Shown here one piece after another: positions 13,631 through 54,077 of a stretch of 64,000 nucleotides of DNA. The notes below the pieces were generated by a model. It was not told the DNA's origin, made no database searches, and saw only the letters and a program-made list of their open reading frames with translations. The translations under genes and the position numbers were made by a program. Source of the DNA: an uncultured Solirubrobacterales bacterium (GTDB taxonomy: Bacteria > Actinomycetota > Thermoleophilia > Solirubrobacterales > 70-9); NCBI GenBank assembly GCA_963795625.1, contig CAWCIS010000006.1, forward strand, positions 164,092 to 228,091, given 5' to 3'. Numbering within the stretch: the first letter of the stretch is position 1; each line of letters opens with the position of its first letter.

Positions 13631-13679
13631 TCCTAAGTTGACAAGAACCCAACGGGAGGGTACGACGACCGTTTTTTGC

Positions 13680-13787: not shown

Positions 13788-13816
13788 TTGATCGCTCAGC
13801 GAGAGCTGCCTATGAA
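13788..13816 (+). promoter_or_regulatory. putative promoter of paralog 7 (TTGATC-17-TATGAA)
   Basis: Same architecture as the other copies, with a more diverged leader. Confidence 0.35.
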
Positions 13817-13870
13817 TTGTGGGAATGCTCGACCACAGGGCCGGGCGACTACGACAAGGAGCGAGATCGA

Positions 13871-14584
13871 ATGATCCGCAATCTCAAAGTCCTGCTGCTC
13901 AGCGCGATGGCGCTGGCGGCCTTCGGCGCGCTCAGCGCCGGCGCCGCTCACGCGGCAGAAGAATTCCACTGTCAGGTAGGGGTGGCACCCTGCACATGGA
14001 CAGGTTCCCAGGATGGTGCAGCGGGTTCAGTAACAGGCGGGCAGGTGCTCGTCATCAAAAACGCCGCAGGAGAAATCGCCTCCTTCAAATGCGGCACGGT
14101 GTCCGGAGGCGCGACATCGACCACCGTCACAACCCCGGAACTCACATTCGGCGCAGCTGGGGCGCTGGCTTACGGCAGCTGTAAAGTCAACGGCAGCTCT
14201 CAGGTCACTGTCCGGATGAACGGCTGTCACTACCTGTTTACAGCCGCAAACGGCAAAACGGAAGCAGGCGCGACAGTTCACATCCTGTGTGCAACCGAAA
14301 AACACATCGAAAGAGAAATTCCAGAAACCGGCTGCATACTAGAAACAACACCGCAGACATTGACCGGAGCTCACTACCACAACATCGGCGCCGGAGCTAC
14401 GACAGAAACGACAGTCGAAGTGAAAGTCAGCGGTGTCGTCGTCGAGGTCAAGGCAGTGGGCAGCGGGTGTCTTCTCCCTGTGAAAGTGGGAGAAACTCTC
14501 ACCGCCACGTACAACGGCAACATGATCATCACAGCAGAGAAAGACAACAGCAACAAAGAAATGGTCGAAGCCTGGTGGGCATAG
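13871..14584 (+). CDS. Cys-rich secreted protein, paralog 7 (most divergent)
   Basis: ORF 13676..14584 trimmed to MIRNLKVLLLSAMALAAFGALSAGAAHA. Ends MVEAWWA. Confidence 0.85.
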   Translation: MIRNLKVLLLSAMALAAFGALSAGAAHAAEEFHCQVGVAPCTWTGSQDGAAGSVTGGQVLVIKNAAGEIASFKCGTVSGGATSTTVTTPELTFGAAGALAYGSCKVNGSSQVTVRMNGCHYLFTAANGKTEAGATVHILCATEKHIEREIPETGCILETTPQTLTGAHYHNIGAGATTETTVEVKVSGVVVEVKAVGSGCLLPVKVGETLTATYNGNMIITAEKDNSNKEMVEAWWA

Positions 14585-14589
14585 CCGTC

Positions 14590-14619
14590 GGTGAGGGGTC
14601 GCCAGGGCGACCCCTCACC
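14590..14619 (+). terminator. GC-rich hairpin terminating the array
   Basis: GGTGAGGGGTCGCC-AG-GGCGACCCCTCACC, starting 6 nt after the stop codon. Confidence 0.55.
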
Positions 14620-14658
14620 TCGCTGATGGCGTAGCGTCCAGGGTCCAGGGGAGATTCC

Positions 14659-14686
14659 TTGACAGATATCCCTTGTTTCCTATAGG
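14659..14686 (+). promoter_or_regulatory. putative promoter (TTGACA - 16 nt - TATAGG)
   Basis: Perfect -35 at 14659-14664 and a -10-like TATAGG at 14681-14686. It would give a ~140-nt leader before the ATG at 14832. Confidence 0.45.
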
Positions 14687-14831
14687 GTCTCTGCGCGGTG
14701 CCCGAACGGGTTCGGGTGCCAGGTTTGAGGACGGGCACGCACGGGGGCGAGGGAGAAGTGGAAAGCAAGGCTCTCCGATCCGTATGGCCACGGTCCCTAC
14801 TTAGAAGACCAGTCTCTAAAGGGAGAGTGAA

Positions 14832-15675
14832 ATGAAGTTGAACCGCTATGTCGGCCTTCTCTTGGCGGTCGCCGGTTTGATCACCGCTTTCGCGGCGCTC
14901 AGCCCGGTGGCCCAGGCCGCGAAACCTAATCCCGGCTACACGCAGTTTGCCGGCTGTCCCAATCTGTATACAGAAAATCCGAACAGCCTCACCTGTCTCC
15001 GCTCCGAAATCAAGAGCGGCAAATTCAAGATGGGGAACAAAGAAGTTCCGATCGAACATCCGATCGTCTTGACGGGCGGGGTCCAAAAACTCTTCTCGCC
15101 GACGCCGGTCTACTTCAACTCCGAAGGCGGACTGACGAAAGTCAAACAGAAAGTCCCCGGCGGCATCATCGGCCTCACCGGATTGACCTGGCTGGCTGAA
15201 TTCCTCGGCATCGAAGCGTTGACGCTGTACGCAACGACCGAATTGGCTGGCACTCCGATCGTTGCCGGCACCGCGTTCGCGCAGCTCGCCGATCAAAGTG
15301 CACCTGGAGAACACGACCGGCGTTCTGGGCAAAAGCTGCTACGTCGGGTCGAACTCGGCTCCGATCGTCCTCAACCTGACGACCGGTACGACCAGCCCGC
15401 CGCCGCCCAACAAACCGATTTCAGGGAAAGAACCGTTCCTTGAATTCGAACCGATTCTGGAAATCCAGAAGGCGAAAAACGGCACCTACGTGGACAACTC
15501 GTTCGCGGCTCCCGGTGCCAACGGCTGCGTCCTGACGCTGTTCGGCTTCATCCCGATCAGCATCAACGGCCTGGTCAACACTCAGTCGGGCCTGCCGTCT
15601 CCGGCTGGGACCAACGAAACGGTGCAGAATTTCGACGCAGAACTCGCTGCGGGCGAACTGGTGTACACCGAATAG
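14832..15675 (+). pseudogene. exported protein of a second small family, interrupted by a +1 frame break (or sequencing error)
   Basis: ORF 14832..15443 has signal peptide MKLNRYVGLLLAVAGLITAFAALSPVAQA and looks protein-like until ~15290, then becomes Arg-rich nonsense. ORF 15262..15675 (frame +1) continues protein-like (IKVHLENTTGVLGKSCYVGS..). Frame +1 is closed upstream by a TGA at 15220-15222. Confidence 0.6.
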
Positions 15676-15709
15676 GCAACGTTTAAAGGGCCAATAGGCC
15701 TGAAGTTCT

Positions 15710-15743
15710 GGCGCGTGGCGGGTTTCCCGCCACGCGCCTTTTT
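15710..15743 (+). terminator. canonical intrinsic terminator
   Basis: 13-bp stem GGCGCGTGGCGGG / CCCGCCACGCGCC with loop TTT, followed by TTTTT. Confidence 0.75.
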
Positions 15744-15823
15744 GTTGGCTGCGTCAGGCAGATACTAGAAAATTCCTATATAGTTACTGAGTAGTTACGA
15801 GGGGTCGTCCGGGAGGGGACGCA

Positions 15824-18076
15824 TTGAGGGGTCGGTTTCTACTTACGCTCGGCGTTTTCGCCATGGCTGCTTGTTGCCTGGCTGCGCTGGCCGGTGCAGC
15901 GATGCCGCAGGTGGACGAGACTTGGGTCGAAGCAGTTGCCACCGACACCGCCGATCTTCATGCGCGGGTCGATAGTGGCGGTCTCGCTAGCACCTACCGC
16001 TTTGACTACATCGCCGAATCCGCTTACCTGGCGAATCTGGAGGCGGGCAGGGAAGGGTTCTTCGGGGCAGCGAGTATTCCCCAGCCGGAAGGCAACCCGG
16101 GCAAAGGCGCCGACAGTCCCGTCACGCAGTCGCTTACCGGCCTGCAGAAGGAAACGAGATATCGCTATCGGGTAGCGATACGCAACGCAGACGGGACCGC
16201 GGCAGGTCCGGAGCGGGTGTTCACGACCAAAGGCGCGGAAGGGCCGCTGGCCCTGCTCGACGGTCGCGGCTGGGAGATGGTCTCCCCAGTCGACAAAAAC
16301 GGCGGTGAGGTCCAAGCGCCCGGGACTGGCGGGAGCGGTGGCGTCTTCCAGGCCGCGTCCCAAGGCGGGGCGGTGACGTTCAGCTCCGTCGCTTCGTTCG
16401 GTGCCGACGCCGGCGGCGCCCCGGCGGGCAGCCAGTACGTCGCGCGCCGCGGACCCGGCGGCTGGGGGACCGAAAACGTGACCGCGCCGCTCGCCGCCGC
16501 CGGCTTCGGCGAAGAACCGGTCGGGGTCCCGTACCAGCTGTTCTCTGCCGGGCTTTCGCTCGGTCTGCTGGCGGCGCCCGACTATCCGCCGCTGCCGGGG
16601 ACCCCAGCACCGCCGGGCTATGGCAACTACTACTTGCGGGATGCCGCCGGCGCCTACTCAGCGCTCCTCACCTATGGCGACATCGCTCGCCTGACGGTGC
16701 CACCGCAGGACTTCGAGCTGAGCTTCGCCGGCGCTTCCACGGATCTCTCGCACATCGTGCTCTCGAGCTGCGCGGCCTTGACTGAAAACGCGACCGAAGT
16801 GCCGGGCTCCGGCACGGGCTGCGATCCGAAAGCGCCCAACCTCTATGTGCGCTCGGCAGCTGGCTGGCGATTGCTGAACCTGCTGCCGGGCGATTCCATC
16901 GGCACGCCGCCGGGCCGACTGGCCGCCCCCGCGGGCGCGGTCTCGGCCGACGGCTCGCGCGTCTTCTGGACCGACGGGTCCGACCTCTATCTCAACCAGG
17001 AAGGCGCCGGCTCGGTCCAGGTCGACGGTGCCGTCGGCGGCGGTGGGACCTTCCAGACCGCCGCGGCCGACGGCTCGGTCGTCTACTTCACCAAGGGCGG
17101 CAGCCTTTACCGCTACGACGTCGCCGGAGAAGCGACCGCGGACCTGACTCCCGGTGGCGGCGTGATCGGGGTACTGGGCGCCTCCGCCGACGGCTCGGCG
17201 GGGTACTACGCCACCACCGCCGGGGTCTTCCTCAACCGGGCCGGCGTCACCACCGGCCCGTTCGCCTCCGCCGTCGACCCCTCGAGCTTCCCGCCGAGTA
17301 CCGGGACCGCCCGAGTCAGCGCCGACGGCAACAGCCTCGCCTTCCTCTCTTCGGCCGAACTCACCCCGTACGACAACACCGAAACCACCACCAGCGGGCC
17401 CGGCAAACCCGTCTCCGAGGTCTATCTCTACGACGCCGGCGCAAACAAGCTCACCTGCGTCTCCTGCAACCCCACCGGGGAACGCCCGAAGGGGCCCTCG
17501 ACGATCCCTGGCGCGATCGCCAACGGCCCGGGCGAAGGCGCCACCCGTGCCTACAAGCCGCGGGCGCTCAGCGCCGACGGCGACCGCCTCTTCTTCGACA
17601 CCCGCGACGCGCTGGTCCCCAGGGCCGACACGAACGGGGAACCTGACGTCTACGAGTGGGAGGCAGACGGCAGCGGCACCTGCGCTCGAGCCGCCGGATG
17701 CCTGCAGCTGATCTCCTCCGGCAGCGGTCGCCCCGCCTCCTTCGTCGATGCCAGCGCGAACGGCGAGGACGTCTTCTTCCTCACCGCCAACTCGCTGGTC
17801 GGGACCGATCCTGGCTCGGTCGACCTCTACGACGCCCGCGAAGGCGGCGGCTTCGCCGAACCGCCGCCCCCGTTCATCTGCGAAGAGGACGCCTGCCAGC
17901 CGCTGCCGCCGCCCCCCGACGACCCCACTCCTGGCACCCTCGTGCCGACCGGCGGCAACCCGCCGGTTCACTTCCCGAAGGCCCACAAGACGAAGCCTCG
18001 GCACAAGCGCAAGCACCGGGCCCAGCGCCGGCAACGAAGTGGGCGCCACCACAGCAGGCCGGAGGGGAGACGATGA
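15824..18076 (+). CDS. exported FN3-like / PD40 beta-propeller protein with Arg/Lys/His-rich tail (shorter paralog of 1117..5256)
   Basis: Signal peptide MRGRFLLTLGVFAMAACCLAALAGAA. FN3-like TYRFDYI..RYRYRVAIRN. PD40-like SADGSRVFWT, AADGSVVYFT, SADGSAGYYA, SADGNSLAFLS, SADGDRLFFDT, SANGEDVFFLT. The C-terminal block YDAREGGGFAEPPPP..C..C is shared with the first giant protein. Tail KAHKTKPRHKRKHRAQRRQR. Confidence 0.85.
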   Translation: MRGRFLLTLGVFAMAACCLAALAGAAMPQVDETWVEAVATDTADLHARVDSGGLASTYRFDYIAESAYLANLEAGREGFFGAASIPQPEGNPGKGADSPVTQSLTGLQKETRYRYRVAIRNADGTAAGPERVFTTKGAEGPLALLDGRGWEMVSPVDKNGGEVQAPGTGGSGGVFQAASQGGAVTFSSVASFGADAGGAPAGSQYVARRGPGGWGTENVTAPLAAAGFGEEPVGVPYQLFSAGLSLGLLAAPDYPPLPGTPAPPGYGNYYLRDAAGAYSALLTYGDIARLTVPPQDFELSFAGASTDLSHIVLSSCAALTENATEVPGSGTGCDPKAPNLYVRSAAGWRLLNLLPGDSIGTPPGRLAAPAGAVSADGSRVFWTDGSDLYLNQEGAGSVQVDGAVGGGGTFQTAAADGSVVYFTKGGSLYRYDVAGEATADLTPGGGVIGVLGASADGSAGYYATTAGVFLNRAGVTTGPFASAVDPSSFPPSTGTARVSADGNSLAFLSSAELTPYDNTETTTSGPGKPVSEVYLYDAGANKLTCVSCNPTGERPKGPSTIPGAIANGPGEGATRAYKPRALSADGDRLFFDTRDALVPRADTNGEPDVYEWEADGSGTCARAAGCLQLISSGSGRPASFVDASANGEDVFFLTANSLVGTDPGSVDLYDAREGGGFAEPPPPFICEEDACQPLPPPPDDPTPGTLVPTGGNPPVHFPKAHKTKPRHKRKHRAQRRQRSGRHHSRPEGRR

Positions 18077-43028: not shown

Positions 43029-44525
43029 GTGACGCCCGATGCCCCAGAGGTAATCCCGACCACCGGCACCGTGCGGCTCGTACCGGACCCCCGCTCGCTC
43101 GAGGCGCTGGGACGCAACCACACCCTCGAGGCCGCCCTGGCGGAGTTGGTGGACAACTCGATCGACGCCGGGGCCGCGAATGTATCCATCCGCTTCATAC
43201 GTGCCAAGGGGCGATTGGTCAGGCTGCTGGTCGTCGACGACGGCACCGGAATGGACGAGGGGAGTATCGACATCGCGATGACGGTGGGGGGAGACCGCCG
43301 TTACGACGAGGCCGAGATCGGGCGATTCGGCCTCGGCTTGAAGGCGGCTTCGTTCAGTCAGGCGCGAAGCGTCACGGTGGTGTCGGCGGCGCGGGGATGC
43401 GCAGCCACCGGCCGGCGCCTGCAGATCGCACACGCCAAGCGTGACTACCGTTGCGAGATCGTCGACGCCGATTTCGCCACCCGTCAGCTCGCGCGGAACT
43501 GGGGGTTCTCGACCAGATCGACCGGCACCATCGTGCGCTGGGACGATGTCAAGGGCTTTCCGGCTCTGGACGACGAAGAGACGATCGACCGCTTTCTCCA
43601 GGCGGCGATTGCCAGGATTCGAACCCATCTGGGCCTGATCTTCCACAGGATCCTCGAGACTGGCGCGGTCCATCTTTTCCTCGACGTCGAGGATGGGGGA
43701 GAGGCGATTATGCACTCGGAGGTCACCCCCCTCGACCCGTTCGGCTATCCGCGGAGCGGTGCCGCCGGTTGGCCGAAACGACTCGCGGCGAGCGGAGCAA
43801 CCGGAGAGCTGTTGCTGGACTGTCACATCTGGCCGGGGCGCTCGACCATCGACCAGTTTCGGCTCGATGGCAACCTGATCCAGCGCCAGGGGCTCTTCGT
43901 CTACTACAACGGGCGACTCGTACAGTGCGGCGGCTGGAACGGTCTGTGTCACGAGGACAAGCAGCTCAACCTGGCGCGCGTAGCCCTCGACATCGAGGGG
44001 GACGTCGCTCAGATGGTGTCTCTGAAGCCGGAGAAGAACGGTGTCGAGGTCGGCCCCGACTTCGTCTCGGCGATCTACGCCGCGGAGGCAGCCGACGGCA
44101 CCGCCTTCGCTGCCTACATCGAACAGGCGCGCGGGGTTCTCAAGGCCGCTAATCGTCGCCGGCGCGTGCGTCCCGCCGTCATCCCGCCGGGGACCGGGAT
44201 CTCGCCACGGGTTCGCCGCGCGCTTTCGCGCGAGCTGACGTTCAAGGATGAGGATCCGGTCGAGGTTCGCTGGGCGGCCTTCGAAGACGACGATTTCTTC
44301 GAGATCGACCGCGAGCAGGGCGTGCTCTGGTTGAACAGCCGCTATCGCCGAGCCCTCGCCGGTGGGCGCAGCGGGTCGCTCAACGACCTGCCCGTGGTCA
44401 AGGCGCTGATGTTTCTCCTGGTCGAGAACATCTACGCCGGGCAGAACATGGGGCCTCGCGACAAGGACAACGTCGAGATGTGGCAGGCGATTCTGACCGC
44501 CGCCGCCCGGGACGAGCTCGGATGA
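43029..44525 (+). CDS. GHKL (Bergerat-fold, MORC/MutL-like, HATPase_c_3-type) ATPase
   Basis: N-box AELVDNSIDAGA, G1 VVDDGTGM, G2 GRFGLGLK. The start is set at the GTG at 43029 because the longer ORF 42801.. overlaps the opposite-strand gene. Confidence 0.85.
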   Translation: MTPDAPEVIPTTGTVRLVPDPRSLEALGRNHTLEAALAELVDNSIDAGAANVSIRFIRAKGRLVRLLVVDDGTGMDEGSIDIAMTVGGDRRYDEAEIGRFGLGLKAASFSQARSVTVVSAARGCAATGRRLQIAHAKRDYRCEIVDADFATRQLARNWGFSTRSTGTIVRWDDVKGFPALDDEETIDRFLQAAIARIRTHLGLIFHRILETGAVHLFLDVEDGGEAIMHSEVTPLDPFGYPRSGAAGWPKRLAASGATGELLLDCHIWPGRSTIDQFRLDGNLIQRQGLFVYYNGRLVQCGGWNGLCHEDKQLNLARVALDIEGDVAQMVSLKPEKNGVEVGPDFVSAIYAAEAADGTAFAAYIEQARGVLKAANRRRRVRPAVIPPGTGISPRVRRALSRELTFKDEDPVEVRWAAFEDDDFFEIDREQGVLWLNSRYRRALAGGRSGSLNDLPVVKALMFLLVENIYAGQNMGPRDKDNVEMWQAILTAAARDELG

Positions 44526-45520
44526 CCGCAGCCGCCCACGGGGGGCGAATGATGACTCCGGCCGTCCTGATGGAGCACTGGCACAACGGGGTCCCGGTCA
44601 TCGTTCCCCTCACGGGCACGCCGGAGTTGCGCCTATGGATCGATTCCACTCGCCGCCGACTTACCTTGCGGGCGCCGTCCAGCTCAGGCACCCAGCTGCC
44701 GGTCAACACGTTGGCGCACGTCAGCGTCGAGACCGTGATCGAGAACGGCGTCTCCTACGTGGAGATCTCCACCACCGACAAGGATCTCGTCTTCGACGGC
44801 TACGCGATGTTGATGGCTGTCGCCGATCGCATCCAGCTTGGCGGCGCCGAGGCGGTGGCCGCACTGGAGGAGACCCTGGCGACTTGGGGGGCGATCCTCG
44901 CCGCCCGGGCCCGCCTCAGCCCGGGCGCGGAAATCGGCCTCTTCGGCGAGCTGCTGGTCGTGCGCGGCTTGCTGGCCGCAGATGCGGCCGGTATCGGAGC
45001 TTGGCGAGGGGGTTTCGGCGAGGAGCACGACTTCGGATTTGCCGAAGCCGACCTCGAGGTGAAGACCACCAGCGGCGAGCGCCGTCATCACTGGATACAT
45101 GGCCTGGCCCAGCTGCTCGGGACTGACGGCAGCCCGCTCTGGATTCTCTCCCTGCAGATAACCCGCGGCGGCGACGGGCAGGGCCTGAGGCTGCCGGAGC
45201 TCATCGACGAGGTTCTTGCCGCGGTCGATGGACAGGGTCGAGACCGAGTCGAGCAGAATCTCGCAGGCGCCGGTTGGCACGAGGCACAGCGTGACCTCTA
45301 CGTCGAGCGCTGGCGGCCGCGCACGGCCCCCCTGCTGCTCCGAGTCGACGGCCGGTTCCCCCGCCTGACCGCGCCCTTGTTGTCCGCTCTAGCCGTCGAC
45401 ACCGGGTCGCTGCACCGGGTCGACTACGAGATCGACCTGACCGACCGACAGCCATCCCCCGATCCTCCACCCGCCGTGGTGGAAATCCTGACCCAGATGG
45501 AGGCGAACCCCGATGAGTGA
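44522..45520 (+). CDS. PD-(D/E)XK-motif nuclease-like protein
   Basis: ATG at 44522 overlaps the upstream stop (ATGA). GLFGELLVV .. EEHDFGF..ADLEVKTT (E..D..E-x-K). Confidence 0.75.
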   Translation: MTAAAHGGRMMTPAVLMEHWHNGVPVIVPLTGTPELRLWIDSTRRRLTLRAPSSSGTQLPVNTLAHVSVETVIENGVSYVEISTTDKDLVFDGYAMLMAVADRIQLGGAEAVAALEETLATWGAILAARARLSPGAEIGLFGELLVVRGLLAADAAGIGAWRGGFGEEHDFGFAEADLEVKTTSGERRHHWIHGLAQLLGTDGSPLWILSLQITRGGDGQGLRLPELIDEVLAAVDGQGRDRVEQNLAGAGWHEAQRDLYVERWRPRTAPLLLRVDGRFPRLTAPLLSALAVDTGSLHRVDYEIDLTDRQPSPDPPPAVVEILTQMEANPDE

Positions 45521-48464
45521 CGCGGAGAACCAGACGCTCTTCCAGATCTACGCGTCCACGCTGGACGCGATGAAGGCGGCGGGCCCGACCGCTCTGGGCC
45601 GGCGGGTCAGGTTCGAGGCGGAGGAGCGCGGTTCGGTGGAGATGGCCGATCCGGCGGTCCTCATCGACCATATCGCCGCCGCACCGGTGGACGATCTCCT
45701 GCTGACGAAGTTGCGCCTCACCCTGGCGACCTGGGATGCCGGGACGCTCGGTTCGTGGATGGCGGAGACGGCACCGCGGACCCCCGAGCGCCGTGCCCGG
45801 ATCTACGAGGTGCTCGAGCTCGAGGCGCCGCTGGTCGAGTGCCTCGGCCGGGCGATGCCGGTCGCAACCGACCAGGCAGTGATCGTCAGCACTGAGTTCG
45901 AGCCGTGGTACGGCCGGGTCATGGCGGAGCGCCACCCCTTCTACTGGCAGCACTATGCGGACTGCCTGGCGACTGACTGGGACGAGGACGCGATCGCCGC
46001 CCTCGATCTCAACACGACCCGGATCGTCGAGCGCCTCAGCGATCCCGAGCGGGCGGAGGCATTTCAGGCCAAGGGGCTGGTGGTGGGCTATGTCCAGAGT
46101 GGCAAGACCGCGAACTTCATCGGGGTTATCGCCAAGGCGATCGACGCCGGCTATCGGCTGATCGTCGTGCTTACCGGTACCACCGGGCTGCTGCGTGGCC
46201 AGACCCAGCGCCGGATCGACAAGGAGCTGGTCGGCTACGAGAACCTGATGCGGGGGATCGACCCAGAGGACGCGGAGGCCATGTTGTCGGTCGACTACGC
46301 CGACGATCCCGACTGGGAGGACTTCGTGCGTCACGGCGCCCTGCCGTCGACGCTCGGCGTATCGGATGTGTATCGCCTGACCACCCGTGAGGGTGATTAC
46401 AAGAGCCTCCAGCAGGGGATCTCGTCCCTGGACTTCGACCGGATCGATCCCACCAAGCCGCACAACGCGGCGGTCAATCTGCACCGCGTGCCGACCCGGA
46501 TCGCGATCGTCAAGAAGAACAAGCAGGTGCTCACCAAGCTGGTCAAAGACCTCAAGCGCATCACTGCCCGTCTCGGTGACATTCCCGCCCTGATCGTCGA
46601 CGACGAGTCAGACCAGGCATCGATCAACACCTCCAACCCGGACAAGTGGGAGCAAGGTCGACCCGAGCGCACCGCGATCAACGGCCTGATCTCGGAGTTG
46701 CTGGAAATGCTTCCCCGGGGCCAGTACGTGGGATATACGGCTACGCCATTCGCCAACGTCTTCGTGGATCCCAGTGACGCGGTAGACATCTTTCCGCGGA
46801 ACTTCATTCTCTCGCTGGACCGGGCACCGGGGTACATGGGCGCGACCGAGTTCCACGATCTCGAACGCCTACCGGAGGACGAGGTCAGGACCGTTGCCAA
46901 CTCCAATGGCCTCGCCTTCGTCAGGTCGATCGACGAGGAGGATGTCGAGGCGACGATGCAGGAAGCGCTTGACATGTTCGTCCTGACCGGGGCGATCAAG
47001 CTGTTTCGAGAGCAGGCCGGCGACCGCGCCGATCGCTTCAAACACCACACCATGCTCGTCCATCAATCGGTTAAACAGGCGGACCATCGCGAGCTCGCTG
47101 AGAGCTTTAGAGAGTTGTGGCGCGCCGCCGGCTACTACGCGGCGGCGGGCCACGCCCGGCTCGAAGAGCTGTTCGATTCCGATGTCAAAGAGGTGATGGC
47201 CGCCCGTCACGGCAAGGACGAGCCGGTGCCGCAGGCGTTCGCCGACATCAAGCCCTTCCTTGCCGAGGTCGTCGCGAGGGTCGATGGTCCCGACGGCGAT
47301 CCGGTCCTCATCGTCAACGGCGACAGGGAGGCCGCGAAGGAAGAGGTCGATTTCGACAGCCGCGGCGTCTGGCGGATCCTCCTCGGCGGTGCCAAGCTGT
47401 CGCGAGGGTTCACCGTCGAGGGACTCACGGTCTCCTACTACCGGCGGGTCACCAGGCAGGCGGACACGCTGATGCAGATGGGTCGCTGGTTCGGCTTTCG
47501 CGACGGTTACCAGGATCTGGTCCGCCTCTACATCGACCGGGGCGGGTCGGGCACCGAGTCGACCCTCGATCTCTACCGGGCCTTCGAGGCAGCGTGCAGG
47601 TCAGAGGAGTTGTTTCGGACCGAGCTGGCGCGATACGCGAAGGTCGAGGACGGCGTTCCCGCGATCACGCCGAAGGAGGTGCCGCCGCTCGTTGCCCAGC
47701 ATCTGGCCTGGCTCAAGCCGGCCGCCTCCAACAAGATGTACAACGCGCAGCTGGTCGAGCGGCGGTCCCCCGGCGAGCGTCTGGAGCCGACCGGATACCC
47801 GGCGGATGTCGGCGCGATCCGACGGAACACGGAGGTGTTGTCGCCGTTGCTCGCCTTGGCCGACAAGGAGGGGAGCTTCGAGCACTTGGCGAGGGATGGA
47901 GCTCGTCCTCTGCCCGCCCTCTACGGCTTCATCGAGCACCAGGGCTTTGTCGAGATCCTGAAGGAGCTGCGCTGGCAGCCCGATGACCATTTTGCCGCCG
48001 ATCTGGCCTGGCTCGAAGGCCTCGACTCCGAACAGATCGAGGATTGGGCGGTCGTCTTGCCACAGCACGTAGGCGGAGGGCCGCGGGCAACCCTGAAGGG
48101 CCACGGGTCGCTCAGCGTCTTCCGCCGCCGCCGGCGGCGCGGCCCGCTGTTCGGGGCAATCAGCGATCCGAAGCATCGACCGGTTGCGGACCGTATCGCC
48201 GGTGTCGGGGATCTCGACGATCCGCTGGCCGGCTCCCTGCATCGTCCCCGGCGCGGTGCCGTGCTGGTTTACCCGGTGGTCGAGTACGAGGAGGAGGATG
48301 AGGTTCCGGAGGAGCTGGACGCGAGCGAGGTCGTCATCGCCCTGGTTTTCGTCGCGCCGACCTCGACCGGCTCACCCGACGGCAGGTTGGTGCAGTTCGT
48401 AGTCCGCGACAAGAGCCGGGAACAGGAGCCGATCGTCGACGCGCCGTCCTCGAACGACGGCTAG
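45513..48464 (+). CDS. Z1-domain P-loop NTPase (983 aa)
   Basis: The start overlaps the upstream gene by 8 nt. Walker A GYVQSGKTANF. Walker B / DExx LIVDDESDQAS. The size and motif order match my recollection of Z1-domain proteins found next to Dcm/Vsr genes. Confidence 0.8.
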   Translation: MSDAENQTLFQIYASTLDAMKAAGPTALGRRVRFEAEERGSVEMADPAVLIDHIAAAPVDDLLLTKLRLTLATWDAGTLGSWMAETAPRTPERRARIYEVLELEAPLVECLGRAMPVATDQAVIVSTEFEPWYGRVMAERHPFYWQHYADCLATDWDEDAIAALDLNTTRIVERLSDPERAEAFQAKGLVVGYVQSGKTANFIGVIAKAIDAGYRLIVVLTGTTGLLRGQTQRRIDKELVGYENLMRGIDPEDAEAMLSVDYADDPDWEDFVRHGALPSTLGVSDVYRLTTREGDYKSLQQGISSLDFDRIDPTKPHNAAVNLHRVPTRIAIVKKNKQVLTKLVKDLKRITARLGDIPALIVDDESDQASINTSNPDKWEQGRPERTAINGLISELLEMLPRGQYVGYTATPFANVFVDPSDAVDIFPRNFILSLDRAPGYMGATEFHDLERLPEDEVRTVANSNGLAFVRSIDEEDVEATMQEALDMFVLTGAIKLFREQAGDRADRFKHHTMLVHQSVKQADHRELAESFRELWRAAGYYAAAGHARLEELFDSDVKEVMAARHGKDEPVPQAFADIKPFLAEVVARVDGPDGDPVLIVNGDREAAKEEVDFDSRGVWRILLGGAKLSRGFTVEGLTVSYYRRVTRQADTLMQMGRWFGFRDGYQDLVRLYIDRGGSGTESTLDLYRAFEAACRSEELFRTELARYAKVEDGVPAITPKEVPPLVAQHLAWLKPAASNKMYNAQLVERRSPGERLEPTGYPADVGAIRRNTEVLSPLLALADKEGSFEHLARDGARPLPALYGFIEHQGFVEILKELRWQPDDHFAADLAWLEGLDSEQIEDWAVVLPQHVGGGPRATLKGHGSLSVFRRRRRRGPLFGAISDPKHRPVADRIAGVGDLDDPLAGSLHRPRRGAVLVYPVVEYEEEDEVPEELDASEVVIALVFVAPTSTGSPDGRLVQFVVRDKSREQEPIVDAPSSNDG

Positions 48465-48916
48465 CGGCCCGGGCCCTGCCGCAGCCGCGATCGCACCACC
48501 CGCTCGACCCGGTCGGCCGCCGCGACGGGATCCTCGTGCTCCCAGAACCTCAGCACCGCCCAGCCGTGCTCGTCCAGCACCCGGTTGGTCGCGGCGTCGC
48601 GCTCGCGGTTGCGGGCCAGCTTGCGCTCCCAGAACTCGGCGTTCGCCACGGGCTTGGTCCCGTGCTCGGGGCAGGAGTGCCAGAAGCAGCCGTCGACATA
48701 GACGGCGACCCGGGCCGGCCCGAGGACGATGTCGGCGCGCGAGCGCAGGCCGCGGACCGGTGCCCGGTCGACGCGGAAGCGCAGGCCGCGGCGGTGCAGC
48801 TCCGAGCGCAGCGCCAGCTCGGGGGCGGTGTCGCGGCGGCCGAGGCGGGACATCTCGGCGCTCTTCGCGGCGGAGGACGGGACCGGTCGAGTTGGCGCTG
48901 GGCGCTTCTTGCTCAC
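48461..48916 (-). CDS. vsr: very-short-patch repair endonuclease
   Basis: RDTAPELALRSELHRRGLRFRV..ADIVLGPARVAVYVDGCFWHSCPEH..FWERKLARNRERD. Shares a CTAG stop overlap with the Z1 gene. Confidence 0.9.
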   Translation of the reverse strand: MSKKRPAPTRPVPSSAAKSAEMSRLGRRDTAPELALRSELHRRGLRFRVDRAPVRGLRSRADIVLGPARVAVYVDGCFWHSCPEHGTKPVANAEFWERKLARNRERDAATNRVLDEHGWAVLRFWEHEDPVAAADRVERVVRSRLRQGPGR

Positions 48917-48984: not shown

Positions 48985-49876
48985 ATGTCCCTTTTCGCCT
49001 CCGCCGAAGCGCCCGACCACGACCCCGAGCTCGACCTGGTTCTGGCTCGGCTGCGGGCTCTGGCCGGCGCCGATCCGGCGGCCAGGTTCGGGGCCGCGAT
49101 CCGGCGCTCGATCGACGAGGTCCTGGACGGCCCGCGCACCGGCCGCTGGGCCTTCTCCCAGCTCGAAGAAGACGGAGAAGACCTACGTCGGCACCAAGCT
49201 CAAGATCGTCGTCCGCACCTCCCTCGGCCTCGAGCCCGGGACGGTCCTCGACCTCGAGATCGAGGGTCACCCGGTCGACATCAAGTGGGGGATGAACAGC
49301 GGCTGGCAGATCCCGGAGGAGGCGGTCGGCCGCATCTGCCTCTGCCTCGGCGGGCTGCGGCGGATGTCGGAGTTCCAGGTCGGCGTCGTCCGCTGTCGCC
49401 CGGAGTACCTCAACGAGGGCGCCAACCGCGATCGCAAGAAGACCCTCTCGGCGGCGGGGCGGGCGGCGATGAGGTTCCTGGTCCCGGCGACGCCGCTGCC
49501 GGAGAACTTCGTCGCCGAGATGGACCCCGCGCTGCGCACCGAGGTGATGGGGGAGGACTCGATCCAGGCCCGGGTGACCAGGCTCTTCACCCTGCTGACC
49601 CGGACGCCGATCCCCCGCGACGCGATCGCCACGGTCGCGCGCACGACCGGCGATCCGATGCGCCGCGTCCGCGCCGATGCCTGGGCGGGCGATCCCCTCG
49701 ACGGAGTGCGGATCCTCTCGGCCAAGTACGGCAACGCGGTGATCGAGGCGCTCGGCTACCCCCGCCTCGCCCCCGGCGAGTTCATGTCGATCCCCCAGCG
49801 TGAGATCGACGGGCTCTCGGATCAGCGCAAGCGCGCGCTTCCCGAGCACGTCCGAGCCCGGTTCGCCTTCGACTAG
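48985..49876 (+). pseudogene. NaeI-family type II restriction endonuclease, +1 frame break at ~49166 (or sequencing error)
   Basis: The N-terminal part (frame of ORF 48760) reads ..IDEVLDGPRTGRWAFSQLE. The C-terminal part (frame of ORF 49292) reads KTEKTYVGTKLKIVV..LDLEIEGHPVDIKWGMNSGWQIPEEAVGRICL.. Deleting one A in CTCGAAGAAG restores QLEKTEKTYVGT. Confidence 0.7.
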
Positions 49877-49887: not shown

Positions 49888-50967
49888 CTAGGCGGCGGCT
49901 GCCGTCAGCTCCGCCGCGGGGCGGGCGCCGGCCCGCCGGTCGAGCCCGGTCGCGACCGCCTCGGCGATGTGCCGGGCCAGCAGCGGGGGCACCGCGTTGC
50001 CGATCTGGCGAGCGACGCTGGTCATCGACTGCTCCTCGGGAAAGATGAAGTCATCCGGGAAGCTCATGCACCGCGCCGCCTCCCTGGGGGTGATCGGACG
50101 GTGGGCCGAGGGGTGCAGGTAGCGTCCTTTCTCGGGCTTGAAGAACTCGGTGCGGATCGTGTAGGCGGGGCGGTCCCACCAGAGCCGTCCGAAGACATCC
50201 GTCGTCCCGCTCGGCTTCTCGCGCCAGCACCGGGGCACCAGATCGGCCAGGCCGGCGCGGTCGAGGTTGCGCTGCATCGCGAACCGGTTGCCGCCGTCGC
50301 GTGGGACCGCCTTATAGCGGCGCACGCTCTCGGGGCGCGGATTGCGGGCCCGGTGCCAGGCTCGCCCGTCTGGGCGCAGCGATAGACCTGCAACCGCCCG
50401 GCGGAAGCTCACCCACGGTTCCCGCCGCTCCTCGGTCGCCAGGTTCGGGTCGCCGTGGGTCGCCTTGGGCCAGGGGACGCCCCCGTTGCGGATGCCGATG
50501 ACGATCGCTCGCCGCCGGCGTTGCGGTACGCCATAGTCGGCAGCGTTAAGGATGTCGCCCTCGACCTCAAAGCCGAGTCCCTCGGCACGTTTCCTGAACT
50601 CCCCGTACTCGGCCGAGCGCAGCAGCTCCGGCACGTTCTCCATTACGAAGGCGCTGGGCCCGGCCTGTTCGAGAGCCCGCAGGTACTCCTGCCAGAGCCC
50701 CCGCCGCTCGAAGCCGACCGCATCGCGGTTGAGCGGCGAGAACCCTTGGCAGGGGGGCCCGCCGATGAGGACGTCGGCGCTCTGAAAGCTCGCCACATCC
50801 TCGATCCGGGCCTCGGCGATGTGGTCGCCGAAGTTCCGGCGGTAGGTCGCGGCGGCGTCCGCGTCGGCCTCGACCGCGAGGATCGAGCGGAAGCGTTCGC
50901 TGTCCTCAAATCCACGGGTCATGCCGCCGCAGCCGGCGAAGAGATCGATCAGCGTGTAGCGCTCCAT
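49888..50967 (-). CDS. DNA (cytosine-5)-methyltransferase
   Basis: Motif I LFAGCGG, motif IV GGPPCQGFS, motif VI ENVPELL, motif X QIGNAVPPLLA. Confidence 0.95.
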   Translation of the reverse strand: MERYTLIDLFAGCGGMTRGFEDSERFRSILAVEADADAAATYRRNFGDHIAEARIEDVASFQSADVLIGGPPCQGFSPLNRDAVGFERRGLWQEYLRALEQAGPSAFVMENVPELLRSAEYGEFRKRAEGLGFEVEGDILNAADYGVPQRRRRAIVIGIRNGGVPWPKATHGDPNLATEERREPWVSFRRAVAGLSLRPDGRAWHRARNPRPESVRRYKAVPRDGGNRFAMQRNLDRAGLADLVPRCWREKPSGTTDVFGRLWWDRPAYTIRTEFFKPEKGRYLHPSAHRPITPREAARCMSFPDDFIFPEEQSMTSVARQIGNAVPPLLARHIAEAVATGLDRRAGARPAAELTAAAA

Positions 50968-51002: not shown

Positions 51003-51383
51003 CTAGGGCCGCCCAAGCTTTTCGAGCTGCTCCTCGACGCGACCGAGGCAGGCGCCGAGCTGGTCTCTTATCTCGAAGTCCCAGAAGCGCAGGACATCCC
51101 AGCCGGCTTCACGCAGCGCCGCCTCTTGCTGCCGGTCGCGCTCCTGCGTGCGGCGGATCTTTCCGTCCCAGTACGCGCTCAGCTTGCCGGGCGTGAAGTG
51201 ATCGGGGTGGCCGTGCCAGAAGCCACCGTCGACGAAGATCGCAAGGCGCCACCGGGTAAAGGCGATATCCGGTTTTCCCGGCAGGCCTTCGGGGTGGCAT
51301 CTGTAACCAGCCAGACCCTGCTCTCGCAGGGCGCGGCGCAGTGCGACCTCCGGACGCGTATCGCGACTCTTGATCGCCGCCAT
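51003..51383 (-). CDS. vsr: very-short-patch repair endonuclease (second copy)
   Basis: SRDTRPEVALRRALREQGL..PGKPDIAFTRWRLAIFVDGGFWHGHP..YWDGKIRRTQERD. Confidence 0.9.
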   Translation of the reverse strand: MAAIKSRDTRPEVALRRALREQGLAGYRCHPEGLPGKPDIAFTRWRLAIFVDGGFWHGHPDHFTPGKLSAYWDGKIRRTQERDRQQEAALREAGWDVLRFWDFEIRDQLGACLGRVEEQLEKLGRP

Positions 51384-51454: not shown

Positions 51455-52720
51455 TCAGGCCGCCAGAGTGAGGGCATCCCGCTCGCGTGGCCCGGGCGCT
51501 TCCCAGTCTCCGCTGGAATATTCGAGTGCGCGGCGGGCGGTCATAGCCGCCGCCCGGCCCAGCAAGGGTGGCACGGCGTTGCCGATCTGCTTGAGCATCT
51601 GCCACTCGCTCGTCTTAAAGACGAAGCCATCGTGGAATGACTGCAGCCGGGCTGCCTCTCGCACCGTGATCCAGCGCTCGTGCCGGGGGTGGACCCACTC
51701 AGAGAGGTCGCGATGCATCTGGGCGAGCAGGGTATGAGCGGGGCGGTTGGGGTGGAGCCGCCGCCACTTCTCCGGCCGTAGCCCGTCCCAGACGCCAGGA
51801 GGGAGGGAATCGCCCTTGGCTCCGGGAAGAAGCTGGGCGATAAGCAGTTTGCGCCGCTCCTGGATCTCCTTCGTGTGATGATTGTGGAGGAGGAGGCTGC
51901 CACCGGCACGAGCCTGCTTCTCGGCGGCGGAGTAGTAGCTGCCGTCGGTGTCGAGCCTCAGCTCCTCGCGGATGGGATTGAGCGAGCGCAGCCGCGGATA
52001 TGGCAGCGGCTCATCGTCGGGCGAGACGAGGCGAGGCAGATCCCCGATCGCCTGGCGAACGGTGGTCTCGGGCTGCCGCTCAAGCGCGGCGATCATCTCG
52101 ATCCACTCCCCGGCGGGCAGAGGAAGCTCAAGATCGTCCCGGGTTCCGAAAAAGACCGCGCGCTTGCGCAGCTGCGGAACGCCGAAGTCAGTCGCCGGCA
52201 GGACCCGGACCTCGGCGTTCGCGTAGCCCGCGCCCCGCAGTGCTTCCAGTGCCTGCTTGGCGAAGGTGCCCTTGGCCATCATCAGCATGTTGGGAACGTT
52301 CTCCATCAGAAAGGCTCGCGGCTGCAGGTCACTCAGCAGGCGAACGAACTCTCCATAAAGGACGTTGCGGGGATCGTTGAGATCGCGAGTGCCGATCTGG
52401 GAGTAGCCCTGGCAGGGCGGCCCGCCGAAGACGAGGTCTATCTCGGTCTCGTCTAAAGCGGCGAAGCGCTCCCTCTGACGTTCCCAGCGAGGGTCGCCTT
52501 TGACCCGGAAAGCCTCGATCGTCTCCTCGAACAGAGGAACTCCGGGGAAGTTATGCCGGTAGGTCTCAGCCGCGTAGCGGTCGTTCTCGACGGCAGCGGC
52601 AATGCCGAAGCCTGCCAGCTTCACCCCCTCACAGAAGCCGCCGCAACCCGAGAAGAGGGAAACGGCCTTGAGACTGGTCTGAGGTGAAGTTGGCATGAGC
52701 ACCGTGGAAGCTAATCTCAC
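51455..52720 (-). CDS. DNA (cytosine-5)-methyltransferase (second)
   Basis: LFSGCGG, GGPPCQGYS, ENVPNML, QIGNAVPPLL. The start may be the internal ATG at 52696. Confidence 0.95.
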   Translation of the reverse strand: MRLASTVLMPTSPQTSLKAVSLFSGCGGFCEGVKLAGFGIAAAVENDRYAAETYRHNFPGVPLFEETIEAFRVKGDPRWERQRERFAALDETEIDLVFGGPPCQGYSQIGTRDLNDPRNVLYGEFVRLLSDLQPRAFLMENVPNMLMMAKGTFAKQALEALRGAGYANAEVRVLPATDFGVPQLRKRAVFFGTRDDLELPLPAGEWIEMIAALERQPETTVRQAIGDLPRLVSPDDEPLPYPRLRSLNPIREELRLDTDGSYYSAAEKQARAGGSLLLHNHHTKEIQERRKLLIAQLLPGAKGDSLPPGVWDGLRPEKWRRLHPNRPAHTLLAQMHRDLSEWVHPRHERWITVREAARLQSFHDGFVFKTSEWQMLKQIGNAVPPLLGRAAAMTARRALEYSSGDWEAPGPRERDALTLAA

Positions 52721-53066: not shown

Positions 53067-54077
53067 ATGCCGTTCGCATTTGATGCTGCCCTCAGCTCTG
53101 AACTCGCACCTGATCTGAGGCCGATCGAGGATCGCCGGAACAATCCCGTTCGGGGCAGGCCAACTCTGTTCCGCCTCGCCCAGGCAAACATGCTCGCCTA
53201 TACCTTTCCGCACTTCGTGCCGGGTTTTGCCGAGGCAGGAATCAATCATCTGCCTTTCCCGGAACTCCTCAGCCGCCCGATTGAGAACGCGCAGAGATAT
53301 GGACGGCAGCTCTACGGCCAGCAATTTGATGTCTCCCCAAACCAGATGGCAAAGGTTGCCGGTGACATATTTCAGGAAGTTGAGGCAGCGGCGCTCTGGA
53401 ACGCGGCAGCCCGGTGGAACCGCTTTATGGCCGGGGGCGTATGGGAGCGGCAGCCCCGATATACGGCCCCGGCTGTAAAGCCGGACATATCGCGCCAGGT
53501 GGCGGTTGTAAGTCTGCCTCGACGCTATGACTGGGTCCGGCTTCTGACTCCGAATACCGCAGATGTCATCGAAGCAGTACGCGCTGACCTCGCGCGGCAT
53601 GATCTTCTCCTGCCGACCTCGACGCCGGACATCATCGTCACCGTTTTGCCCCCCGAGTGCCGGCTCTCGCCTGATTTTTCCTCGGACGTGCCCAATATCG
53701 GCCATCAGTCCCAGAAGGTGCTGAAGCTGGCTCACAAGCAGCTGGAGGGAAGGGTTGCCGCGGGCGAGATCATCCTCGCGATAGCCCTCAAGAAAAGCCT
53801 GCGCAGCGACCGTCTCTACCAGCCTCTGTACGAGGCAAACATCATGCAGCTACTGCTCGAAGGAAAACTAGATGCGCCACGGGTAGATTTCGAAGTTCAT
53901 ACTCTGGAATCGGCTGGCACCGCCGCGCTCGACACCTACCGCGCCGCCTCGCTCGCAGCGGTGGCGACCGGCAAAGCAATCCCGCACCGCGCGATTCGGG
54001 ATCTCTATGAGCCCTCCAGCGCGGATGAGCTGGTCAGGCGCTTCCTCGGCTTTCTCGATGAACGCACCGCCTGGTAA
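53067..54077 (+). CDS. NgoMIV/Cfr10I-family (CCGG-core) type II restriction endonuclease
   Basis: TPDIIVT (PD) followed by ALKKSLRSDRLYQPLYE. The K, R(+4)-S-D(+6)-R(+7) and E(+14) spacing equals what I recall for NgoMIV K187/R191/D193/R194/E201. A/T-richer codons than the neighbours. Confidence 0.7.
   Translation: MPFAFDAALSSELAPDLRPIEDRRNNPVRGRPTLFRLAQANMLAYTFPHFVPGFAEAGINHLPFPELLSRPIENAQRYGRQLYGQQFDVSPNQMAKVAGDIFQEVEAAALWNAAARWNRFMAGGVWERQPRYTAPAVKPDISRQVAVVSLPRRYDWVRLLTPNTADVIEAVRADLARHDLLLPTSTPDIIVTVLPPECRLSPDFSSDVPNIGHQSQKVLKLAHKQLEGRVAAGEIILAIALKKSLRSDRLYQPLYEANIMQLLLEGKLDAPRVDFEVHTLESAGTAALDTYRAASLAAVATGKAIPHRAIRDLYEPSSADELVRRFLGFLDERTAW

Follow-up and report, generated by a model that had tools for sequence, protein, structure and literature searches.

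A triad of overlapping genes for a GHKL ATPase, a DUF4420 nuclease and a DEAD-Z1 motor as a putative methylation-gated restriction system in an uncultured Solirubrobacterales bacterium

In the window analysed here (the whole stretch of 64,000 nucleotides), three overlapping genes encode a GHKL ATPase, a PD-(D/E)XK nuclease of the DUF4420 family and a DEAD-Z1 helicase-like motor. We consider it somewhat better than an even bet (probability of roughly 0.55) that this triad works as a restriction machine of the Mza / DEAD-Z1 kind, driven by ATP and gated by methylation. We favour this reading because of the domains and motifs of the three proteins, their homology to MzaB, MzaC and MzaD, the DEAD-Z1 hallmarks of the motor and its exclusive fold matches to SF2 enzymes, and also because of the linkage to cytosine methylases (Dcm) and Vsr endonucleases among 70 related loci, the one-strand runs at loci L001 and L002, a similar array on an Arthrobacter plasmid and the restriction-modification (R-M) cassettes next to the triad. 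The type of operon is already known, as it was predicted by Iyer et al. (2008) and rediscovered by Miller et al. (2022).

Results

The GHKL gene (43029..44525, + strand) has a GTG start and encodes a MORC/MutL-like and MzaB-like protein of 498 aa; it is followed by the genes of the MzaD-like DUF4420 protein (44522..45520, + strand; 332 aa) and the MzaC-like DEAD-Z1 protein (45513..48464, + strand; 983 aa). The overlaps of 4 and 8 nt given in the preliminary description were read directly at both junctions, as an ATGA overlap (ggATGAccg) between the first two genes and as ATGAGTGA between the last two. Overlapping junctions also occur in relatives, for example of 4 and 11 nt at L001. The three proteins are identical over their full length to the database proteins P0241, P0121 and P0001 of the same genome, respectively, and all three ORFs are full length, covering 96-100% of their closest homologues. 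In this window the triad forms its own transcription unit, with both methylase genes on the opposite strand. Since the same gene order recurs in dozens of genomes and the domain E-values are so low, the triad is far beyond chance.

The domains and motifs noticed earlier from the letters alone all stood up, being recovered by Pfam (HATPase_c_3, DUF4420 and Z1) and intact and invariant in the homologue alignments. The GHKL protein (HATPase_c_3, 1.5e-23) keeps the Bergerat motifs E39-x3-N43-x2-D46, D70/D71-G72-x-G74 and G98-x2-G101-x-G103, and its family profile matches MORC2/4/3 (1.7e-8 and weaker), MutL, TopoVI-B and PMS2 in the PDB, while no S5 domain was detected in it by sequence. It matches MzaB in PADLOC (6.7e-30) and scores 130 bits against the NCBIfam MzaB cut-off of 850. 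In the DUF4420 protein (Pfam, 9.5e-32; NCBIfam MzaD, 9.2e-17, 61 bits against a cut-off of 420) the E..D..ExK nuclease residues E137, E143, D170, D177 and E179-x-K181 are invariant among 39 homologues, and variation within the triad is greatest in the N-terminal ~95 aa of this protein. Its AF2 model reaches a pLDDT of 91 and found no significant fold neighbour in the PDB, which counts against the favoured reading.

The Z1 protein (Pfam Z1, 1.2e-52) matches MzaC in PADLOC (2.1e-62) and in NCBIfam (265 bits against a cut-off of 1500), as well as a REBASE-type 'Type II helicase domain protein' profile (1.2e-35). Its Walker A (Q195-S-G-K198-T), Walker B (D363-D-E-S-D367) and D651-TLMQMGRWFG661 motifs are invariant in the alignment. 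With the AF2 model as query, Foldseek returned only SF2 motors at E ~1e-4. HsdR of EcoR124I, a Type I subunit, ranked first, and the others were DEAD-box proteins, RecQ, Mfd and SNF2; the model itself is of moderate confidence only (pLDDT 69), a further point against the favoured reading. Also against it, the Pfam search detected no DNA-binding or sequence-reading domain in the triad proteins.

Linkage was counted in the 70 related loci whose flanks were complete, with a distance limit of 5 kb for Dcm and Vsr genes. A GHKL gene lies directly upstream of Z1 in 68 of them, and in 37 DUF4420 is found between the two. Dcm is present within 5 kb in 54 loci, in many cases immediately following Z1 or Vsr on the same strand, and Vsr within 5 kb in 41. 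In L002, which is the closest of the relatives that have a linked Dcm, the genes form one co-directional run Dcm-Vsr-GHKL-DUF4420-Z1, and L001, also among the closest relatives, has Vsr-GHKL-DUF4420-Z1-Dcm on one strand. Additionally, a mobilizable Arthrobacter plasmid carries in a row Dcm, a 1096-aa protein, GHKL, PD-(D/E)XK and Z1.

The triad is part of an 11-kb stretch with two further R-M cassettes, where G+C is in parts below that of the flanks. Next to Z1 lies the very-short-patch repair endonuclease gene vsr1 (48461..48916, - strand; Pfam Vsr 7.5e-16; NCBIfam vsr 114.5 bits, above the cut-off of 97.85), convergent with Z1 and sharing with it the palindrome CTAG, common to both stops. 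The broken classical endonuclease noticed beforehand is a NaeI-family gene with one frameshift (48985..49876, + strand; ATG at 48985, stop at 49876), which runs in two frames apparently by one extra base near 49160-49170; in agreement, Pfam NaeI matches one frame with positions 5-42 of its profile and the following frame with positions 44-256, and tblastn with intact relatives places the frame switch at 49155-49175. Judging from the sequence, this gene may be either a pseudogene or the product of an assembly error. Convergent with it is the C5-cytosine methyltransferase gene dcm1 (49888..50967, - strand; Pfam DNA_methylase 9.2e-61), whose product is 58% identical to the Dcm of L002, co-directional there with Vsr-GHKL-DUF4420-Z1, and 50% identical to the triad-adjacent Dcm of L080. 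A second methylase gene, dcm2 (51455..52720, - strand; Pfam DNA_methylase 3.5e-59; PADLOC MTase_II PDLC03326, 1.8e-119), is divergent from its classical partner, an intact Type II restriction endonuclease gene of the Cfr10I/Bse634I family (53067..54077, + strand; Pfam Bse634I 6.1e-61; PADLOC REase_II 9e-114). Between both methylase genes we found vsr2 (51003..51383, - strand; Pfam Vsr 1e-20), spotted through the repeat D2 and missing from the genes listed in the preliminary description.

Discussion

The account in the preliminary description of work by Iyer, Abhiman and Aravind proved accurate. Among their MORC/paraMORC operons, the 'third type' combines the ATPase with an SFII helicase bearing the motif DThhQXuRhFG and a novel RE-fold protein with E-D-ExK residues, and it is frequently accompanied by cytosine methylases and nucleases of the Vsr family (PMC2292703). 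The triad operon is of this type, with DTLMQMGRWFG as the helicase motif, both kinds of gene nearby and the same patchy, mobile distribution, and nothing essential differs.

The mzaABCDE system is reported to have been validated experimentally as anti-phage (Gao 2020, as cited in PMC9523054); according to a preprint, the E. coli version restricts T4 without growth arrest and purified MzaD cuts DNA in vitro (10.1101/2022.06.16.496414). The defence HMM libraries, a search proposed at the outset, assign the triad proteins to MzaB, MzaC and MzaD and thus to a defence family, and not to the non-defence families that the preliminary description named as a refutation. Nevertheless, by sequence the triad is best called Mza-like and not Mza, since its scores (130/850, 265/1500 and 61/420 bits) are far under the equivalog cut-offs and neither MzaA nor the AIPR protein MzaE was detected here with Pfam and PADLOC. 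Its gene order is B-D-C, and it has the Dcm and Vsr linkage that does not appear in the description of Mza in PMC9523054.

The DEAD-Z1 motor has been dissected biochemically in CglI and NgoAVII (PMC5861437, PMC4267653, PMC5737866). In H.CglI, Walker A has Q for G, Walker B reads DDExD and motif VI is QxxR (PMC5861437); the triad protein shows all three, with QSGKT as Walker A. In CglI, NgoAVII and BceSIV such a motor comes with a C5-methylase and with a nuclease that is separate from it, and cutting needs NTP hydrolysis (PMC4267653); a separate nuclease is present in the triad too, and a protecting C5-methylase is suggested by linkage. In those systems, however, the nuclease is of PLD plus B3 type instead of PD-(D/E)XK, there is no counterpart of the GHKL ATPase, and the motor has 632 aa against 983, with about 180 extra N-terminal residues in the triad protein, whose C-terminal region has no sequence match to the solved C-domain of H.CglI. 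The earlier remark that no biochemical mechanism is known holds for the GHKL-containing, Dcm/Vsr-linked variant and does not hold for the motor, for Mza or for MzaD.

According to the favoured reading, the Z1 protein would be a two-lobe SF2 motor (DEAD N-core, Z1 C-core) that, by homology to H.CglI, translocates on double-stranded DNA, and the DUF4420 protein would be the cutting subunit, as its homology to MzaD suggests. The GHKL protein may act as an ATP-gated dimeric clamp through which engagement of DNA is coupled to the action of motor and nuclease. A linked C5-methylase, most likely Dcm1 and possibly Dcm2, would mark host DNA and so spare it, and the Vsr enzymes would repair the T:G mismatches that arise from 5-methylcytosine deamination. 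An anti-phage role is predicted from homology to Mza, whereas complex formation, protection by methylation and the choice of the partner methylase are suggested by gene linkage.

The same components may be read otherwise. Mza is described without a methylase component in PMC9523054; therefore the core may not need methylation to discriminate self from non-self, which speaks against a methylation gate. The triad could be an Mza-type defence that responds to another cue of infection or foreign DNA and then degrades the DNA, with methylases, Vsr and Type II enzymes as mere neighbours in the island. We hold this to be unlikely, although it would fit the 16 of 70 loci with no Dcm within 5 kb, a point against the favoured reading, the separate transcription of the methylases in the window and the scarce correlation between Dcm and triad similarity (rho 0 to 0.24 among 19 loci). 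Against it stand the frequent Dcm neighbours, the methylase-like gene (DUF1156) that several Dcm-less loci carry within the operon and the lack of the true Mza partners AIPR and MzaA. A Type IV-like enzyme that attacks foreign cytosine modifications, with the GHKL/MORC protein as reader of epigenetic marks, seems improbable. MORC-type ATPases were tied to marks such as DNA methylation (PMC2292703), and mzaABCDE activity against T4 differs with the cytosine modification state, but unmodified T4(C) is restricted at least as well as the modified phage (preprint 10.1101/2022.06.16.496414). Furthermore, such an enzyme next to a host C5-methylase would target its own DNA unless the specificities were disjoint, and Pfam detected no methyl-reader domain of SRA, SBD or YTH type.

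To our knowledge, Actinomycetota are among the bacteria without MutS/MutL, and these would be served by a self-contained pathway for very-short-patch or mismatch repair made of triad and Vsr, with the GHKL protein, a MutL/MORC homologue, as MutL analogue, the Z1 motor as UvrD analogue and DUF4420 as a MutH-like or excision nuclease. The triad motor is an SF2 DEAD-Z1 protein and UvrD belongs to the SF1 helicases; the MutL-family ATPase, Vsr and helicase at sites defined by cytosine methylation are common to E. coli MutL-Vsr-UvrD by analogy only, and the triad has no MutS-like sensor and the distribution of a mobile defence element. In 27 of the 70 relatives Vsr is an immediate neighbour that points in the same direction, more commonly without DUF4420 (19/33 vs 8/37; Fisher p = 0.003, uncorrected for phylogeny), and in L003 it is fused to the operon, with no Dcm detected within 10 kb. 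E. coli MutL interacts functionally with Vsr and UvrD (as cited in PMC2292703), and Iyer et al. allowed that such modules may now and then be recruited to repair (PMC2292703). Even so, we regard such a pathway and these roles as very improbable: the homologous Mza is an anti-phage system, 29 of the 70 loci lack a Vsr gene within 5 kb, and the module is sporadic, plasmid-borne, present in Proteobacteria such as Hyphomicrobium and Stappia and found also in DUF1156/DUF499 operons. The least probable case is an eroding island with a triad no longer functional or expressed, as could be thought from the frameshifted NaeI-family gene, from the Dcm and Z1 of L002, each split between frames in tblastn, and from a promoter scan that detected no sigma-70-like promoter upstream of the triad on the + strand. 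That scan, however, used a crude E. coli-type consensus on a 70% G+C organism, and the triad keeps full-length ORFs with every catalytic residue in place.

That the triad is the restriction arm or a methylation sensor of the methylase on the NaeI side, as proposed in the preliminary description, is compatible with the data and not demonstrated by them. In favour of it, the L002 run includes the close relative of Dcm1, and no NaeI gene was detected there; against the proposal, methylases are exchangeable between loci, there is no common transcription unit and, as Dcm and triad similarity are hardly correlated, a fixed methylase-nuclease specificity pair is not evident.

The triad also resembles the putative defence system that Miller et al. 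(2022) term 'type I', as far as the passage of PMC9523054 on this type describes it, in its core of Z1 (~925 aa), PD-(D/E)XK and cytosine methyltransferase and in a strong association with DNA-repair endonucleases. That description, of a six-gene layout, is purely computational and names no GHKL protein in this passage. The PD-(D/E)XK family is printed there as DUF4220, presumably DUF4420.

Organization of the triad and conservation of its motifs

Three overlapping genes on the plus strand of the window encode a GHKL ATPase (43029-44525, 498 aa; Pfam HATPase_c_3, 1.5e-23), a DUF4420 protein of the putative PD-(D/E)XK family (44522-45520, 332 aa; Pfam DUF4420, 9.5e-32) and a Z1 protein (45513-48464, 983 aa; Pfam Z1, 1.2e-52). 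Each ORF is identical over its full length to an existing protein call of this genome. The GHKL/DUF4420 junction is ATGA, with an overlap of 4 nt, and the DUF4420/Z1 junction is ATGAGTGA, with an overlap of 8 nt. In the homologue alignments, GHKL motifs I-III (E39xxxN43xxD46, DDG72xG74 and G98xxG101xG103) are invariant, as are the DUF4420 catalytic residues E137/E143, D170 and E179-x-K181 and, in the Z1 protein, Walker A V194-Q-S-G-K-T199 (K198) and Walker B D363-D-E-S-D367. The Z1 stretch D651-T-L-M-Q-M-G-R-W-F-G661 is invariant in 39 homologues. The preliminary description had recognized an overlapping three-gene unit with these domains, a GHKL Bergerat site, an E..D..ExK motif and the GKT Walker A and DDESD motifs; ORFs, overlaps, Pfam assignments and alignments bear this out, so that genes, domains, motifs and linkage are established and the original identification was correct. 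Within the triad, conservation is lowest at the DUF4420 N-terminus, where mean identity is 26%, and at the Z1 C-terminus, where it is 31%; these two stretches are at most candidates for specificity or regulation. Scanning for promoters and terminators turned up no usable signal for the three genes.

A PADLOC search, which the same description had proposed, matched all three proteins to defence families: the GHKL ATPase to MzaB (6.7e-30), the DUF4420 protein to MzaD (6.8e-5) and the Z1 protein to MzaC (2.1e-62), the latter being also paired with a REBASE-type 'Type II helicase domain protein' (1.2e-35). Against PDB, the GHKL family profile found MORC2, MORC4, MORC3, MutL, TopoVI-B, PMS2 and MLH1, in the ATP-binding region only; as to an S5-fold domain C-terminal to the GHKL domain, a feature of the type-3 R-M operon discussed below, the PDB sequence matches end at about residue 137 and the MzaB model alignment reaches residue 326. 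Searched against PDB as a single sequence and as a 13-sequence profile, the Z1 protein gave no meaningful match. Its AlphaFold model is of only moderate confidence (pLDDT 69), and the Foldseek neighbours of this model are exclusively two-lobe SF2 motors, the top one being HsdR of the Type I enzyme EcoR124I. Modelling of the DUF4420 protein gave high confidence (pLDDT 91), but Foldseek found no significant neighbour for it in PDB (best E = 0.07); its assignment as a nuclease is therefore based on membership in the Pfam family, on catalytic residues that do not vary and on the survey of the PD-(D/E)XK superfamily (PMC3424549).

Genomic neighborhood

Upstream of the triad lies a divergent gene for an LPG-synthase-like membrane protein. 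Downstream, Vsr1 (48461-48916, minus strand) is convergent with the Z1 gene, and the two stop codons overlap in the palindrome CTAG (48461-48464), leaving no space for an intervening terminator. A NaeI-family endonuclease gene follows on the plus strand (ATG at 48985, stop at 49876), with one frame switch near 49160-49170 that fits an additional base in gaAgaagacgg; beyond the switch, the similarity to intact relatives runs on unbroken in the next frame. It looks like either a true pseudogene or an assembly error, both being compatible with the single sequence. Next comes Dcm1 (49888-50967, minus), then Vsr2 (51003-51383, minus), which was found through its repeat with Vsr1, and Dcm2 (51455-52720, minus). 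Vsr2 thus lies between both Dcm genes, in the minus-strand order Dcm2-Vsr2-Dcm1; relative to the Pfam Vsr model, its ORF sets in only at position 13, which gives it a shorter N-terminus than a typical Vsr. An intact endonuclease gene of the Cfr10I/Bse634I family (53067-54077, plus) completes the set. The Z1 and DUF4420 genes are adjacent, and the Dcm genes are located 1.4 and 3.0 kb downstream of the triad on the opposite strand. Judging by the adjoining NaeI- and Cfr10I-family genes, GCCGGC and RCCGGY would be tentative guesses for the motifs of Dcm1 and Dcm2.

The entire 11 kb form an R-M/defence island. Parts of it fall below their flanks in G+C, which is about 70% for the window. A search for the boundaries of the island found neither a tRNA gene anywhere in the window nor a convincing pair of direct repeats at the flanks. 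Separately, window positions 1-16000 have a G+C of 0.58-0.65, against about 0.70 elsewhere, and a strong positive AT skew; they include a 1414-aa NHL/fibronectin-III repeat protein (1012-5256) and several ORFs without Pfam match, and are probably another acquired region.

Related loci

At least 7,446 Z1 homologues exist. Scanning one genome per species gave 80 related loci, almost all from Actinomycetota, onto which the window proteins were mapped and whose ORFs were clustered; the counts below refer to those 70 that have 5 kb or more of sequence on either side. The closest relatives are from Solirubrobacterales, with 74% identity in Svornostia abyssi; one Solirubrobacterales Z1 homologue carries the gene name 'sle' in one source. 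The GHKL gene is directly 5' of Z1 in 68/70 loci and DUF4420 lies between them in 37. A Dcm gene is found within 5 kb in 54/70 loci and a Vsr gene in 41/70, being adjacent and co-directional in 27/70. The order on one strand is Dcm-Vsr-GHKL-DUF4420-Z1 in L002, the Svornostia abyssi locus, whose Dcm is 58% identical to Dcm1, and Vsr-GHKL-DUF4420-Z1-Dcm in the related locus L001. The L002 homologues of Dcm (5969-6995) and Z1 (10001-12902) each align in two frames, which points to frameshifts or sequencing errors in S. abyssi.

On the mobilizable plasmid p2MP of Arthrobacter sp. 68b (L081; NZ_KJ410765.1, 7279-23984), Dcm, a 1096-aa hypothetical protein, GHKL, PD-(D/E)XK and Z1 are encoded in one direction, and an IS21 element adjoins. 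The linkage among relatives, together with this plasmid-borne copy, indicates a mobile module that is almost always accompanied by a DNA methylase. The linked methylase is exchangeable, and Dcm similarity hardly follows triad similarity. A search for a specificity domain by covariation between Dcm and the triad domains in 19 loci, a small and phylogenetically non-independent sample, gave no usable signal (rho from 0 to 0.24, partial correlations at most 0.30). In some Dcm-less loci the triad operon also includes genes for a DUF1156 methylase-like protein and a HEPN-DUF499 protein. In L066, L067, L070, L074, L075 and L077 (at about 1000-7400 of each locus), DUF1156 (about 950 aa), HEPN_Swt1-DUF499 (about 1130 aa), GHKL, DUF4420 and Z1 are co-directional, and the triad is there attached to a different modification module.

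Relation to known systems

The preliminary description referred to a comparative genomic prediction of such operons, and exactly this operon is described by Iyer, Abhiman and Aravind (2008; PMC2292703). Their type-3 R-M operon combines a MORC/paraMORC GHKL ATPase, an SFII helicase and a new RE-fold protein with an E-D-ExK signature, with frequent cytosine methylases and Vsr nucleases, and DNA looping and unwinding were proposed for it by analogy with MutL, MutH or Vsr, and UvrD. In agreement, the GHKL ATPase of the window has intact ATP-binding motifs, the C-terminal helicase motif DThhQXuRhFG reads DTLMQMGRWFG, the DUF4420 protein occupies the place of the adjacent RE-fold protein, and two cytosine methylases and two Vsr nucleases are linked.

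A second relative is mzaABCDE, the validated system of Gao et al. (2020) as cited in the account of Miller et al. (2022; PMC9523054). That account outlines a putative system with a core of co-located Z1, PD-(D/E)XK and Dcm genes, linked with repair endonucleases and likened to mzaABCDE; the same three genes are co-located in the window. A preprint (10.1101/2022.06.16.496414) reports that T4 restriction by the E. coli mzaABCDE involves no growth arrest, that MzaD cleaves DNA as a purified protein, and that MzaD point mutants weaken both cleavage and T4 restriction. The triad scores below all three NCBIfam equivalog cut-offs (bits vs cut-off: MzaB 130/850, MzaC 265/1500, MzaD 61/420), and no match to MzaA or MzaE (AIPR) was obtained by Pfam (ten proteins, 41.8-54.1 kb) or by PADLOC (eight, 43.0-54.1 kb). 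For these reasons we reject an assignment to Mza proper and consider the locus homologous to Mza.

The Z1 protein also has features that define the DEAD-Z1 motor of the CglI H-subunit (Toliusis et al., PMC5861437): in the DEAD N-core, Q for G in Walker A and a DDExD Walker B; in Z1, the predicted C-core, Q655-M-G-R658 for a motif VI shortened to QxxR. Among the conserved histidines where the Z1 insertion begins, H512 and H517 do not vary and H511 and H525 hardly do; these are candidate counterparts of the H282/H290 pair of H.CglI. Of H.CglI, only the C-terminal domain was reportedly solved by crystallography; the fold of this DNA-binding domain had no match here by PDB sequence or profile searches, nor among the best 50 Foldseek matches listed. 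Moreover, the CglI R-subunit joins a PLD nuclease to a B3-like reader, whereas the partner here is the PD-(D/E)XK DUF4420 protein. Nuclease type and C-terminal domain thus led us to reject a CglI-family enzyme. In CglI, NgoAVII and BceSIV, the R-subunit binds an unmethylated site, the DEAD-Z1 motor then translocates on dsDNA with ATP hydrolysis, and collision leads to cleavage (PMC4267653, PMC5737866, PMC5861437). The earlier statement that no mechanism had been established is in consequence only partly current: it holds for the GHKL partner and for the Dcm/Vsr-linked variant and fails for the motor, studied in CglI, and for the Mza nuclease. The triad belongs to a computationally well-described and partly validated kind of system.

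Proposed role and alternatives

We favor, with a probability of about 0.55, that the triad is an ATP-driven restriction machine from which the host is protected by a linked C5-methylase. By homology, the DEAD-Z1 protein would translocate on DNA and the DUF4420 protein would cut it, in a role in defence. From linkage only, we infer a complex, methylation gating and a partner methylase: a GHKL dimer may clamp or gate, and the linked C5-methylase would protect the host, Dcm1 being the first choice because its homologues stand beside the triad in two related loci (L002 and L080). Vsr would repair the deamination damage caused by methylation. As a putative role, the restriction arm of the adjacent methylase suggested in the preliminary description is plausible.

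A methylation-independent effector of the Mza type that merely shares the island with R-M genes is an unlikely, if the least unlikely, of the other explanations, and a modification-dependent enzyme resembling Type IV is very improbable. A MutL/UvrD/MutH-like repair pathway built around Vsr is slightly less probable again: the module is mobile, 29/70 loci have no Vsr within 5 kb, and the Mza phage phenotype also argues against repair. Least credible of all is a silent remnant, as the triad ORFs are full-length and their motifs intact.

According to a prediction of 2008, the eukaryotic MORC chromatin ATPases descend from prokaryotic MORC/MutL-like GHKL ATPases of restriction-type operons. The locus offers a compact and intact three-gene example, with two candidate protective methylases and an apparently broken classical endonuclease alongside, and is therefore a reasonable construct for probing methylation gating of the GHKL/Z1/DUF4420 module. 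As it is one of thousands of similar loci, its value is that of a good representative, not of a discovery, in tests of the part that MORC-like ATPases play in bacterial restriction.

Loci without DUF4420

In 33/70 loci, mostly from Streptomyces (L009, L012, L015, L017, L020 and about 28 more), DUF4420 is absent and the gap between GHKL and Z1 is below 100 nt, with no room for a gene. Vsr is often fused to these operons and is then the sole nuclease detected there; it is adjacent and co-directional in 19/33 of them vs 8/37 DUF4420-bearing loci (p = 0.003, uncorrected for phylogeny). The Vsr nickase is a known MutL client in E. coli. In seven DUF4420-less loci (L022, L025, L035, L038, L043, L057 and L058), a full-length NaeI-family gene (Pfam 3e-124 in L035) is directly 3' of Z1, at about 13000-14000 in locus coordinates and at 5955-7696 in L035. 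An NgoMIV-family gene comes next in L035 and L038, and both enzyme families are known for GCCGGC.

The absence of DUF4420, the Vsr fusion and the NaeI/NgoMIV genes after Z1 suggest that the GHKL-Z1 pair may accept different nucleases. In this reading, quite unlikely in our estimate, GHKL clamp and DEAD-Z1 motor would form a general chassis for interchangeable nucleases and methylases; if true, Type II folds of the classical kind, and the Vsr nickase as well, would take part in an ATP-driven long-range machine as its subunits for cutting or sensing. For the window, one possibility is that restriction for the NaeI-type methylase passed to the triad once the NaeI-like gene had broken; alternatively, the triad could act on nicks made by Vsr.

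Additionally, loci from Streptomyces, Rhodococcus and Nocardia share recurrent Dcm neighbours, namely a DUF6339 protein, a 330-aa protein without Pfam match, an HTH_3 protein of about 720 aa and a fusion of a sacsin-like ATPase with a ResIII/DEAD helicase, as in L015 (15776-22919), L016 (1-7635) and L054 (15491-20290, with a fusion of about 1600 aa). This set may be a further defence system.
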